NCBI RefSeq assembly: GCF_003019035.1
Contig: NZ_CP027447.1
Strand: one strand, 5' to 3'
Source: Escherichia coli
GTDB taxonomy: Bacteria > Pseudomonadota > Gammaproteobacteria > Enterobacterales > Enterobacteriaceae
Length of the DNA stretch: 64,000 bases
The first letter of the stretch is position 1. Each line of letters starts with the position of its first letter. This document shows, in pieces, positions 1 to 62,658 of the stretch. The notes below the pieces were generated by a model. That model saw only the letters and a list, made by a program, of their open reading frames with translations, ran no database searches and had not been told where the DNA came from. A program made the position numbers and the translations under genes.

Positions 1-539
1 GTAATCGGAGACTCGGCCATTAAGCGCATCATCTGCGGCCAGTGATGCCAGAGAAAAAACCCCGTCACGCTGCCAACCAGGATGGTTTTCAAAATTGCTT
101 TAAGTAACTCCGCGCCAGTCTGAGCCGAGAACATCCGTTTAATGCCCGGTAGCGGGTTGAGTTTGGAAAACTTCGGCTGCAAGGATTTGCCGCTAAATAC
201 CAGCCCTCCCAGCATGACCGGAGAAATGAGCGCCACCAGTACCACGCCGCTAATCAGTGGCAGCAGCGCCAGCATGGCTTCTCTGATCAGCAGAATAATC
301 TGCCCGAGGATCAGATTCGGGTCATTGATAATACTGTGATCAAAATGCAGCCCAGCGGAGAGCATGCCCGACAATCGACGGGCCAGCGACACACCGCCAA
401 ACCAGATAACACTCACGCCCACTAACAAAATCAGCAGCGAGGTCAGTTCACGGGAACGCGGGATTTGCCCCTCTTCCCGCGCTTTTTCTAGTCGGTGAGG
501 TGTGGGGGCTTCTGTTTTGTCGTCGCTCTCGTCAGACAC
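1..539 (-). CDS. flhB: Flagellar export apparatus protein FlhB, N-terminal part (gene continues beyond window start)
   Basis: Reverse-strand translation from GTG at 539 reads VSDESDDKTEAPTPHRLEKAREEGQIPRSRELTSLL..., recognisable as FlhB N-terminus; not in ORF track because it runs off the window edge. Confidence 0.85.
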   Translation of the reverse strand, partial: MSDESDDKTEAPTPHRLEKAREEGQIPRSRELTSLLILLVGVSVIWFGGVSLARRLSGMLSAGLHFDHSIINDPNLILGQIILLIREAMLALLPLISGVVLVALISPVMLGGLVFSGKSLQPKFSKLNPLPGIKRMFSAQTGAELLKAILKTILVGSVTGFFLWHHWPQMMRLMAESPI

Positions 540-775
540 GTCGCCAATCCTGGAAAGAGTATTAAGCGTAAATGATGCCAGAGCGCAAAGCGTTCAATGG
601 TTTGAGTAAGGGGCAAAACAGGCGGGATTTAGGGCGTTTATGCAAAAAATAGGTTCAGTTGCAGAACGTTTTGCGAACCATTTTCCAGTTCTGAGATTTA
701 GCCATTTAGCCTATAGAATCGCCCACCGCCTCTCTGTTAGTTTGCTAATAATTAAATTATTACAAAGGCGATCAA

Positions 776-2284
776 ATGGAATGGCAACAATTGCTTAACT
801 GCAACCGTCGGAAAGATAATCTAAAAAAAACCAGCATAGAATTTTTACATCCCCTTGCTAGCGGAAGACAAGAGATCGAGCGGGATTACGACCGATTACT
901 TTTTGCTGCGCCAACTCGTCGGCTTGCGGATAAAACACAAGTTTTCCCGTTAGATCAAAATGACAGTATACGGACGAGGCTGACTCATTCTCACGAAGTA
1001 GCAAACTTTGCTCGCGGAATAGGAATGAGACTCGCTTTCGAGATGAAGGAACACATCTTTGGCGAAATACCCACGGGGATTGTCGTTGAACGCGACGTTC
1101 CTGCTCTGTTAGCAGCGATCGGACTGGCACACGATCTCGGTAATCCACCATTTGGGCATCAAGGTGAAGCAGCGATGCGCGCATGGTTTAATAAAAATCT
1201 TCCAGGCCTTCTTGATAAAGAAGTAAACAGCGAAATATATAACGACTTTCTGCAATTTGATGGAAACTCACAAACCCTGCGCCTGGTTACCAAATTACAA
1301 ATTATTAACGATAACTTTGGTCTGAATCTGACCTATGCCACGCTGGCTGCACTGATCAAATATCCCCGAGCTTCATATTCATCGGACAAACATTGGAAAA
1401 AGCACGGTTTTTTCTATTCTGAGCATGAGGTTGTCATGGATGTCTGGCAACAAACGGGCCTTGGCGTACCAGGTAATGATGCCGGTTGCCGCCACCCATT
1501 TACCTGGATAATGGAAGCTTGCGACGATATTGCCTACTCTGTGCTGGACGCAGAAGATACCATCAAGAAAGGATTTGCCTCATACCAGGATTTGCGTGAT
1601 TTTTTGATGTCACAATCCGAGCCGAACGATGTAATTCAACATGTTATTGAAGCTGTAGAGGCCAAAAATGACGCCTGGAAAGAGCAAAGAAATGCACTTT
1701 CACCGGCGGAAATTAATGAACTCAGTATGCAAATGTTCAGAGTTTATGCCACCAGTGCATTGATTAATGCCGTAGTAGAAGCCTTTCGCGAACAATTACC
1801 CACGCTGATGCAGCGTGACTGCCCGTTCAAAGATTTAATCTCGCAAAGCAAAGGTCACGCTCTCTGCACTGCCCTGAAAATGTTCGACCGAACACGAGGC
1901 TACTTTCATCGTTCAGTCTTGCAACTGGAACTTAGGGGATCTAATTACATTACTAACTTGATGGATATGCTCTGGATTGGCATCCATGGACACAAAACAA
2001 AGAAAGAACGAGACGGAGAACGCGAGTCCGCGTCTACAGATAACCTTTTTGTTTCTCGTGAAGAATACCTGTCGGATACTCCCTTTGGTCGCTATGCTTA
2101 CGGGACAATCTCTGAAAATTATCGCCGTGTGTTTGAAGATCCCGCCAATACACTCCCTATTCTTTATAAAGAAGCGCAGTTGCTTACCGACGCAATCTCA
2201 GGCATGACGGATAGTTATTTAATGCGCCTTCACGATGAGCTAAAATCACTGTATGAATGTGGTCTCAAACACCCAACAGCTTGA
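776..2284 (+). CDS. Dgt-family HD-domain deoxynucleoside triphosphate triphosphohydrolase homologue (dGTPase-like), accessory copy
   Basis: 502-aa ORF with AAGG RBS about 9 nt upstream; motifs TRLTHSHEV, LAHDLGNPPFGH, TWIMEACDDIAYSVLDAED and C-terminal ISGMTDSY align with E. coli Dgt motifs as I recall them; local GC about 35-42%. Confidence 0.8.
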   Translation: MEWQQLLNCNRRKDNLKKTSIEFLHPLASGRQEIERDYDRLLFAAPTRRLADKTQVFPLDQNDSIRTRLTHSHEVANFARGIGMRLAFEMKEHIFGEIPTGIVVERDVPALLAAIGLAHDLGNPPFGHQGEAAMRAWFNKNLPGLLDKEVNSEIYNDFLQFDGNSQTLRLVTKLQIINDNFGLNLTYATLAALIKYPRASYSSDKHWKKHGFFYSEHEVVMDVWQQTGLGVPGNDAGCRHPFTWIMEACDDIAYSVLDAEDTIKKGFASYQDLRDFLMSQSEPNDVIQHVIEAVEAKNDAWKEQRNALSPAEINELSMQMFRVYATSALINAVVEAFREQLPTLMQRDCPFKDLISQSKGHALCTALKMFDRTRGYFHRSVLQLELRGSNYITNLMDMLWIGIHGHKTKKERDGERESASTDNLFVSREEYLSDTPFGRYAYGTISENYRRVFEDPANTLPILYKEAQLLTDAISGMTDSYLMRLHDELKSLYECGLKHPTA

Positions 2285-3005
2285 ACAGCGTATCGCCGAT
2301 TTTTTTACGCTTAGTGATGAGCATAAGAAAGCCAGAGTATTACTTGATACTCTGGCCTGTTCCTGTCCGGCCTGGATTTTTGGCGGGATGGTGCGTGACT
2401 TAGGCTTGTTTGGCGTCGAGGGATTCTCTTCAGACCTTGATATCGTCATCGGTCGCTCCCGTGAGGAACTCTTCCGGACATTGGCTGAACTGCCCGTCAA
2501 ACAACTGCGTTTTAATAAGTTCGGTGGGATCCGTTTTCGTTATCACGACTTCGAATTTGATATCTGGAACCTCAATGAGACATGGGCATTTCGGGAAAAA
2601 CTTATATTTTGTGAGGATGAATCAAGTCTGTTAAACACTACGCTGATGAGTTGGGATGCCGTGCTCTATGATCTACGTAGTGAAAAAATTATCAGTAAAG
2701 ATAATTATTTGACCGACTTAAATCGCAGACATCTTGAACTTGTTCTTCATACTAACCCCAATCCAAGCGGTTCGGTAACGAAAATTTTACGCACTATTTT
2801 TACTAAGCAGGTAAAGAGTTTAGGTCCGGAACTCTGTCATTTCTTGCACCATGAACTGACGAAAAAACGTTATGAAGTTTGGCATCATTACGATGTACTG
2901 CACTACCAGTCATCGTCATTTTCTCGTTCACAATTTAATGCGTTGATAAATTTACTGGCGCAACAATCACGCTTCGCTGATCTAAAATTATCAAATTACA
3001 AATAA
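2253..3005 (+). CDS. Pol-beta superfamily nucleotidyltransferase-like protein (tRNA-NT/poly(A) polymerase head-like motif), unknown function
   Basis: 250-aa ORF overlapping the upstream gene by 32 nt; motif WIFGGMVRDLGLFGVEGFSSDLDIVIG resembles the GGxVRD...DxD head motif of CCA-adding enzymes and PcnB; the rest has no recognisable body/tail domain. Confidence 0.65.
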   Translation: MNVVSNTQQLEQRIADFFTLSDEHKKARVLLDTLACSCPAWIFGGMVRDLGLFGVEGFSSDLDIVIGRSREELFRTLAELPVKQLRFNKFGGIRFRYHDFEFDIWNLNETWAFREKLIFCEDESSLLNTTLMSWDAVLYDLRSEKIISKDNYLTDLNRRHLELVLHTNPNPSGSVTKILRTIFTKQVKSLGPELCHFLHHELTKKRYEVWHHYDVLHYQSSSFSRSQFNALINLLAQQSRFADLKLSNYK

Positions 3006-3049
3006 CCATCCTCCACATACTTCCTGAACGATACCCGCCCCCCTGCTAT

Positions 3050-3074
3050 CGGCCTGGCATCATCGCGCAGGCCG
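3050..3074. other. 7-bp inverted repeat hairpin (CGGCCTG-N11-CAGGCCG) between the cassette 3' end and the cheZ stop
   Basis: Perfect inverted repeat read in sequence; no flanking T-run on either strand, so not a canonical intrinsic terminator. Confidence 0.3.
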
Positions 3075-3092
3075 AAGTTAAGGCAATACAAA

Positions 3093-3737
3093 TCAAAATC
3101 CAAGACTATCCAACAAATCGTCCACCTGATCCTGACTGGCTACCACACCGGCTTTGCTGGTATCGACCTGAGGTCCATTAAGCAAACTCTGGTTTTCACG
3201 TTTTGGACGCGACTCCTGTTCCGGGATGTTTTCCAACAGCACCATCAGCAACTGACGTTCGATCTCCTGAATGACATCCATCATCCGCTTAATGACCTGC
3301 CCGGTGAGATCCTGAAAATCCTGCGCCATCATGATTTCCAGCAGTTGCGCGTTAGTAAAGCTGGTATGCACGGGGACATCTACCAGAAATTGCCGCGTAT
3401 CTGTTACCAGTTCTCGGGCGTCGGCAAGGTCGATCGGATCGGCAAACCAGTCATCCCAACGTTGGGTTAACGCTTTTGCTGATTTCTCCATTTGATCCTG
3501 ATGCGGTTGTGACGCCTCAACACTGTTCAGCGCCCGCTCCGCAGCCTGGGCGGTCATCTGCACAACATAGTACAAACGATCGCGCGCATCGGGGATGGCT
3601 TCCGCCGCTTCGGCAATGGCCTGATCCAGCCCCAGCTCCCGCAAACTGTCGCGCAGCATACGCGTCAGGCTGCCGATGCGCGCAATGATATCGCCAGCTG
3701 AATGCTCGTCAGCAGGTTTGATTGATGGTTGCATCAT
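3093..3737 (-). CDS. cheZ: Chemotaxis phosphatase CheZ
   Basis: Translation [24 protein letters not shown]... to ...DDLLDSLGF matches E. coli CheZ; start taken at MMQP inside the longer track ORF. Confidence 0.95.
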
Positions 3738-3747
3738 AGTCGCATCC

Positions 3748-5201
<1,454 letters not shown>

Positions 5202-9422: not shown

Positions 9423-9449
9423 TTATCGGCAAGGAAGGGGGAAACTTTA
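9423..9449 (-). promoter_or_regulatory. Sigma-28 (FliA) class 3 promoter upstream of tar
   Basis: Minus strand reads TAAAGTTT-N11-GCCGATAA, an exact match to the sigma-28 consensus. Confidence 0.7.
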
Positions 9450-58438: not shown

Positions 58439-59062
58439 ATGTCAACGATTATTATGGATTTATGTAGTTACACCCGACTAGGTTTAACCGGGTATCTGTT
58501 GAGTAGAGGGGTTAAAAAAAGAGAAATCAACGATATTGAAACCGTTGATGACCTTGCCATAGCTTGTGATTCACAGCGCCCTTCAGTGGTGTTTATTAAT
58601 GAGGACTGTTTCATCCACGATGCTTCTAACAGTCAGCGTATCAAGCTCATCATTAATCAACATCCCAATACGTTATTTATCGTTTTTATGGCAATTGCCA
58701 ATGTTCATTTTGATGAATATCTATTGGTCAGAAAAAATTTATTGATCAGTTCTAAATCGATCAAACCGGAATCTCTCGACGATATCCTTGGCGATATTCT
58801 GAAAAAAGAGACAACGATAACCTCGTTTTTAAATATGCCGACGTTATCATTGAGCCGAACCGAATCGAGTATGTTGCGAATGTGGATGGCAGGTCAGGGA
58901 ACCATTCAAATCTCTGACCAAATGAATATCAAAGCCAAGACCGTTTCATCGCATAAAGGTAATATTAAACGTAAGATCAAAACGCATAATAAACAGGTTA
59001 TCTACCATGTCGTCCGACTGACGGATAATGTGACTAATGGTATTTTTGTCAACATGCGCTAA
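58439..59062 (+). CDS. rcsA: Colanic acid capsule regulator RcsA (LuxR-type)
   Basis: 207-aa [48 protein letters not shown]... with C-terminal HTH. Confidence 0.95.
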
Positions 59063-59105
59063 CACATTCTGACTGGTGGTTTCCCACCAGTCAGGCTGAA
59101 TTAGA

Positions 59106-62488: not shown

Positions 62489-62658
62489 CCTGACGACTCC
62501 CAACCTGCTTTTTTATGATTCTGGCATAACCCGGCGATAACGTACCGCAAAACAGCGATAATTTTATAATGGTGGCATGATAAGACGCGACTATCATTCA
62601 TTGCAGGCATTGGCACACCAGGCCGGATGTGATCCGGCCTGGTGTTAATGATACCCTT

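Follow-up and report, generated by a model that had tools for sequence, protein, structure and literature searches.

What might keep two transcripts apart when their genes run toward each other across a gap of only 87 nt? The question arises in a stretch of Escherichia coli DNA of 64,000 nt (the window), where a two-gene defense cassette, cloA-cloB, converges with the chemotaxis gene cheZ. The second gene of the cassette, cloB (2253-3005, + strand), ends in a TAA stop codon at 3003-3005; cheZ (3093-3737, - strand), which is identified by its annotation and by the Pfam family CheZ (3.5e-76), has its stop codon at 3093-3095; and the gap between them runs from 3006 to 3092. The first-pass annotation of this DNA had the cassette ending 88 nt from the cheZ stop on the opposite strand. 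The genes do converge, but the distance is 87 nt, and the span that was given for the junction, to 3095, takes in the cheZ stop codon. The geometry matches the RefSeq annotation of SCU-301, a strain that is 100% identical here.

cheZ is the last gene of the tar-tap-cheRBYZ operon, and the order on the minus strand beyond the junction is cheZ, cheY, cheB, cheR, tap, and tar. Upstream of tar lies a perfect sigma-28 promoter (9423-9449, - strand; TAAAGTTT-N11-GCCGATAA, 16/16 matches), from which transcription in the cheZ sense arrives at the hairpin in the gap. This site and the other sigma-28 promoters in the window, at 14035 (-), 39402 (-), and 39476 (+) with 14-15 of 16 matches, served as positive controls for our promoter scan. 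The scan found no sigma-28 promoter upstream of cloA that scored at least 11/16 (the tar promoter scores 16/16), and no sigma-70-like promoter lies within the gap.

Judged by homology, the cassette is a Clover anti-phage system, which consists of the dGTPase CloA and the nucleotidyltransferase CloB (Yamaguchi et al. 2025; PMC12265719). CloA (776-2284, + strand) matches the Salmonella CloA structures (PDB 9P8S-9P8V) over its full length (E = 3e-190), the PADLOC dGTPase model (9e-71), and TIGR01353 (284 bits, above the cut-off). Its H119/D120 and H128/E131 align with the published HD motif (H117/D118) and HE dyad (H126/E129). The open reading frame at 2253-3005 overlaps cloA by 32 nt and fits CloB, the nucleotidyltransferase that makes the inhibitor p3diT: it contains GGMVRD...SDLDIV and a third aspartate (D103), so that D61, D63, and D103 supply the [D/E]h[D/E]...h[D/E]h motif of Pol-beta-type nucleotidyltransferases, and it adjoins cloA. 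Across 16 homologs, G44, G45, R48, D49, D61, D63, and D103 are invariant, and all 16 weakly match PF01743 (the PolyA_pol head domain). CloB by itself falls below threshold against Pfam, NCBIfam, and the PDB sequences, and searching genome contigs with this single protein found only three distant loci, as such a query finds close relatives only. In every locus that we compared, cloB follows cloA directly. When CloB is inactive, an E. coli Clover operon lowers fitness by more than 10,000-fold (PMC12265719), so the gene that faces cheZ is the one that restrains a toxic dGTPase.

On its other side the cassette diverges from flhB, which is on the - strand and starts near 540. The region upstream of flhB (541-636, - strand) is shared with cassette-free E. 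coli, as seen in alignments with K-12, S87, N56, O157, and HS-02, and the variable segment begins at about 636-655. Two blocks upstream of cloA, at 668-677 (GTTTTGCGAA) and 733-744 (TCTGTTAGTTTG), are conserved in seven lineages, although the spacer between flhB and cloA has otherwise diverged. They may be a Clover promoter or operator that is divergent from the FlhDC-dependent promoter of flhB (in MG1655, a FlhDC ChIP peak was assigned to flhBAE; PMC4183435).

The cassette is present in 106 of 5,426 complete E. coli genomes, always between flhB and cheZ. Where K-12 and the other alleles with an empty site have about 105 bp, the cassette-bearing allele has about 2.4 kb (roughly 637-3080). The 105 bp comprise a REP-like element and, directly after cheZ, a different hairpin (GCCTGAT...ATCAGGC). 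In the cassette-bearing allele, 3076-3092 form the spacer before the cheZ stop, and from about 3080 on this sequence (AGGCAATACAAA) is identical to that of cassette-free E. coli. Among the empty-site alleles, REP content varies and the gap ranges from 188 to 208 nt; N56 has a variant of the cheZ hairpin in which arm positions are changed and which is a nearly perfect palindrome. In one Clover-positive genome, FDAARGOS_944, the annotation gives flhB as a pseudogene that is interrupted by an internal stop (positions 1-551 of our locus L005).

A recent random insertion does not account for Clover at this site. The gene order flhB<-|->cloA-cloB-><-cheZ recurs in Enterobacter cancerogenus, E. hormaechei, Cronobacter malonaticus, Pseudescherichia, a Citrobacter amalonaticus-like contig, and Cedecea. 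Three further contigs have the cloAB-cheZ arrangement, and one of these has a different left neighbor with cheZ still on the right. Across the loci that we compared (L009, L011-L016, L018, L019, L026, and L027), identity to the window is 68-82% for CloA, 44-71% for CloB, and 84-92% for CheZ. The pair is also found elsewhere: a second Clover clade, with a CloA that is about 60% identical, is not near che genes in Salmonella enterica (L025) and Atlantibacter hermannii (L017), and cloA-cloB occurs in Pseudomonas and in a Bradyrhizobiaceae genome without che neighbors. The island of the second clade encodes QueC, a 224-aa protein, an Ogg-like glycosylase, a D12-type methyltransferase, and IS elements, along with a phage integrase in Salmonella and the type I restriction protein HsdR in Atlantibacter. 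In E. hormaechei CP056155 (L014, 1365-4038), cloA is split by an IS with an rve-family transposase while cloB is intact; by its sequence, this locus is a knock-out of the toxic effector that arose naturally.

So what lies between cloB and cheZ? The only strong structure in the gap is a GC-rich stem-loop that is common to both convergent transcripts and whose arms the first-pass annotation had placed exactly (3050-3074), and we found no further comparable structure in 3006-3092. The perfect arms are CGGCCTG (3050-3056) and CAGGCCG (3068-3074), which taken alone give a 7-bp stem and an 11-nt loop. Folding adds the pair U3049-A3075 and two inner G-C pairs, so that the stem-loop at 3049-3075 has about 10 bp, a single bulge, and a loop of 6 nt. 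Because all of the stem pairs are Watson-Crick pairs, it folds equally well on both strands. The 10 nt 3' of the stem are AAGTTAAGGC on the + strand and ATAGCAGGGG on the - strand. There is a T-run on neither, as had also been claimed: directly 3' of the stem, AAGUUAAGGC (+) and AUAGCAGGGG (-) stand where a U-rich tract would be, and a terminator scan of the gap made no call. [quoted passage not shown] It also differs in E. coli from a bidirectional intrinsic terminator, since the convergent genes and the symmetric stem are present and the flanking A and T runs are absent.

The hairpin is not a chance structure. In a 45-nt context it folds at -22.0 kcal/mol on the + strand and -22.3 on the - strand (z = -3.4 and -3.1), and only 1 of 200 shuffled sequences folded as well. 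Among all 45-nt windows of the 64 kb, only about 0.2% fold at -22 kcal/mol or better on a given strand, and there are just 8 loci where both strands come to about -21 kcal/mol. With up to two mismatches allowed, 0.26 matches to the exact hairpin pattern are expected per window, and no second good match was found in it. The hairpin occurs at one place per genome in 107 genomes, that is, the 106 genomes with Clover and HS-02, and is unchanged in both E. coli haplotypes. Hairpins that are very stable on both strands and have no obvious T-runs also occur at 59053-59100 and 62602-62650, so U-less hairpins are not rare in this window. A search of 400-3900 with the Rfam covariance models returned nothing relevant at E values up to 1. 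Two other identities were considered and rejected. A REP/BIME or other dispersed repeat is ruled out, as the hairpin is single-copy in all 107 genomes and is not REP-like. An integron attC site or the end of a mobile element is ruled out as well, as the cassette contains no recombinase and its terminal repeats are at chance level (a 10-nt inverted match, 572-581/3054-3063, and a 15-nt direct repeat, 2997/3087).

The RNA that precedes the hairpin in the direction of the cassette is of unusual composition. A tract at the 3' end of cloB and in its UTR (2966-3043, + strand) has 28 C and 6 G, and no other 78-nt window on either strand of the 64 kb has a C/G ratio as high as its 4.67. Part of this tract is still translated; the untranslated 3006-3049 is 48% C and 9% G. 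For Rho-dependent termination, RhoTermPredict looks for a 78-nt window with C/G above 1, regularly spaced C residues, and a GC-rich hairpin within 150 nt (PMC6407284). Here the hairpin follows immediately, although no chain of C residues at a spacing of 11-13 nt is longer than 4. By its composition, then, the tract resembles a Rho loading site. As the strongest Rho-loading-like composition comes just before the hairpin, read-through from Clover into cheZ is unlikely. Past the hairpin the two directions differ: C/G is 1.7-2.1 over 3050-3167 on the + strand, whereas the cheZ-sense RNA is G-rich, with C/G of 0.2-0.6 for about 300 nt. The latter should be a poor substrate for Rho, so Rho may load late, and some read-through from cheZ into antisense cloB is possible.

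Experiments on other E. coli junctions suggest how a hairpin of this kind might behave. By Term-seq, Rho-dependent transcripts of E. coli end just after stable U-less stem-loops, and these 3' stem-loops protect the RNA against PNPase and RNase II (Dar & Sorek 2018; PMC6061677). In motile MG1655, RNA-seq and RT-PCR showed no meaningful transcription across the gap between cheZ and flhB (PMC4183435). The hairpin that follows cheZ in K-12 (701-733 of our locus L001) is also U-less, and it folds at -25.5 kcal/mol in the cheZ sense and at -15.6 kcal/mol on the other strand, a bias that is due to G-U pairs. The cheZ-sense fold is usually the more stable one where the strands differ (K-12, L011, L018, and L027). 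REPs themselves are partly Rho-dependent terminators and stabilizers (Harris et al. 2026 bioRxiv). We looked for cheZ in published 3'-end maps, and the supplements of PMC7815308 contain no entries for cheZ or flhB; a literature search for cheZ, flhB, and readthrough together found no paper.

The best explanation, which we hold with moderate confidence, is that the stem-loop at 3049-3075 is a common 3'-end element of cloA-cloB and of the sigma-28-driven tar-tap-cheRBYZ operon and insulates each from the other. It would be one of the stable 3' stem-loops without a U-tail, common in E. coli, that stand at Rho-dependent or processed ends and protect them from 3'-5' exonucleases. On the Clover transcript, Rho would most likely load on the RNA from the cloB stop onward, which is free of ribosomes, extremely rich in C, and poor in G; the hairpin would then be a pause site or a trimming stop, and little antisense RNA would enter cheZ. 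For the che mRNA, the hairpin, 18 nt past the stop codon, would be the positional counterpart of the U-less cheZ hairpin in cassette-free E. coli and probably fixes and stabilizes the 3' end of cheZ, with the polymerase being released by Rho further downstream, by head-on collision, or by both. The net effect would be that cloB, the restrainer of a toxic dGTPase, is insulated from a strongly expressed flagellar operon. There is a selective reason to expect this: the toxicity of losing CloB predicts selection against antisense interference. The arrangement of C-tract and hairpin, together with the lack of read-through past the U-less hairpin of K-12, argues that a missing U-tract does not mean a missing barrier. 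Against this, the C-tract lies upstream of the hairpin, and the K-12 experiment concerned a different hairpin plus a REP.

Could the hairpin instead be a leaky barrier? The first-pass annotation had proposed that read-through across the junction would produce antisense RNA, a possible route for cross-talk between the cassette and chemotaxis. A U-less hairpin would stop few polymerases, so that che transcription would yield antisense cloB, Clover transcription would yield antisense cheZ, or both, and defense would be coupled to motility. The missing U-tracts and the blank terminator scan are what this would require, the cheZ-sense RNA is a poor Rho substrate for about 300 nt, our scan found no other terminator-like site on the - strand until 1818-1800, and the convergent linkage to cheZ has been kept across genera. 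Nevertheless, we consider this unlikely. The strong rut-like tract speaks against read-through from the cassette into cheZ, hairpins without a U-tract are common at efficient 3' ends in E. coli (PMC6061677), K-12 shows no read-through past its own (PMC4183435), and lowering CloB is highly toxic (PMC12265719).

The orthologous junctions also bear on this. In the ten cheZ-linked lineages the gap is 87, 64, 64, 43, 40, 40, 40, 34, 30, or 24 nt, and each gap contains one GC-rich hairpin, with sequences that are unrelated. The hairpins of E. hormaechei and Cronobacter have the layout of A-run, stem, and T-run, and the scan calls terminators there on the cheZ-sense strand; the Citrobacter-like hairpin (AAAGCCACC-ATTGC-GGTGGCTTTTT) has a T-run after the stem in the same classical layout; and in Cedecea the hairpin is followed on the cheZ-sense strand by a T-run (TTATTTTTT). 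An A-run before and a T-run after the stem are present in the orthologs L015, L016, and L026. The three most similar Clover alleles (those of E. coli, L009, and L011) are all without U-tracts. Since canonical terminators stand at several of the orthologous junctions, it is not cross-talk that has been conserved. So the anatomy that the first-pass annotation described stands, while the cross-talk that it drew from it is unproven and the evidence leans against it. Only the direction from cheZ to cloB is plausible: if read-through does occur, it should run that way rather than the reverse, because the cheZ-sense RNA is G-rich and its transcription is driven by sigma-28.

Another way for a U-less hairpin to work is as a collision-type bidirectional terminator, in which the stem-loop sets where head-on polymerases meet and trailing polymerases complete the release, with neither a U-tract nor Rho being needed. 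In its favor, the two genes converge on a single stem-loop with an equally good fold on either strand, and Wang et al. 2022 (bioRxiv 10.1101/2022.10.23.513370) reported that, between convergent genes, a stem-loop is needed if collisions are to occur at defined positions. We consider this unlikely, as it needs simultaneous and reasonably frequent transcription from both sides, while the expression of defense operons is usually weak and that of the che operon is limited to motile cells.

It is quite improbable, in our view, that the hairpin and the C-tract are just a relic of the recombination that created this allele, with no selected role. Some observations do point that way. GATACCCGCCCCCCT looks like the left arm of the hairpin in Pseudescherichia with the right arm missing, so from its sequence the C-tract may be a mere relic of an older hairpin arm. 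Of the six variable sites in the gap within E. coli, none lies in the hairpin, and this conservation is not significant (P about 0.11). Also, HS-02 has no cassette and yet keeps CCCCCTGCTAT and the hairpin, beside a run of about 60 A. This run (about 3950-4000 of our locus L003) takes the cassette's place and adjoins a K-12-like REP; the junction could be an assembly artifact or an unusual deletion junction. Against a relic, a strong hairpin is present at all 10 of the orthologous junctions despite the turnover of sequence, and between E. cancerogenus and E. hormaechei a stem pair has changed from G:C to A:T in a compensatory way while the loops vary freely. Furthermore, the E. coli hairpin is in the top 0.2% or so of the window.

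A more elaborate idea is that the convergence of cloB with che is itself functional. In motile cells, che transcription leaking past the hairpin or colliding at it would lower cloB relative to cloA, less p3diT would be made, and the activation threshold of the CloA dGTPase would be lowered exactly when flagella expose the cell to flagellotropic phages. We regard this as very unlikely. Finally, it is extremely unlikely that the perfect 7-bp inverted repeat with its 11-bp spacer is a DNA-level palindrome for a dimeric protein (an operator or a recombination site), given that it sits between two stop codons away from any promoter, that it is single-copy beside a cassette with no recombinase and with terminal inverted or direct repeats not above chance, and that orthologous hairpins of unrelated sequence fit an RNA structure and not a conserved binding site.

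If the stem-loop does insulate both operons, then the junction is a natural test case for how a dosage-sensitive defense operon is shielded from a strong neighbor, as the gene that restrains Clover's toxicity directly faces a strongly expressed flagellar operon. The hairpin as such is ordinary. More notable is that one Clover clade resides at the flhB/cheZ junction across several enterobacterial genera, with a hairpin each time; this context is what our analysis adds. Our impression is that these results are relevant mainly for specialists in termination or in the regulation of Clover.

How does the junction compare with known systems? Clover as described by Yamaguchi et al. 2025 (PMC12265719) has the same gene order and size (2,230 nt here and 2,200 nt for the cloned E. 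coli H5 interval). The characterized Salmonella system lies in an integrase-bearing island, in contrast to the clade that lies between flhB and cheZ, and that paper does not mention any flagellar genes. Another comparison is the cheZ-flhB gap of K-12, where a hairpin and a REP stand in the same place right after the cheZ stop, also without a U-tract, and no read-through was detected in MG1655 (PMC4183435). The K-12 hairpin, however, is unrelated in sequence, is biased toward the cheZ sense, and is followed by a REP, while the hairpin of the Clover allele is symmetric, single-copy, and not REP-like.

As a structure, the hairpin is an instance of a known and well-described class, the U-less 3' stem-loops between convergent genes. 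In bidirectional terminators of convergent gene pairs, reportedly described by Ju et al. in 2019, one stem-loop is likewise common to two genes and folds on both strands, but those have an A-run and a T-run and the E. coli hairpin has neither. A further comparison is the class of Dar & Sorek 2018 (PMC6061677), stable U-less stem-loops at the ends of Rho-dependent transcripts: like its members, the E. coli hairpin is stable, GC-rich, and directly after a gene, with no U-tail or upstream A-tract, and on the cassette-sense strand it is surrounded by more C than G. It departs from that class as the rut sites there are mostly downstream while the strongest C-rich tract here is upstream of the hairpin, and as the cheZ-sense side here is G-rich.
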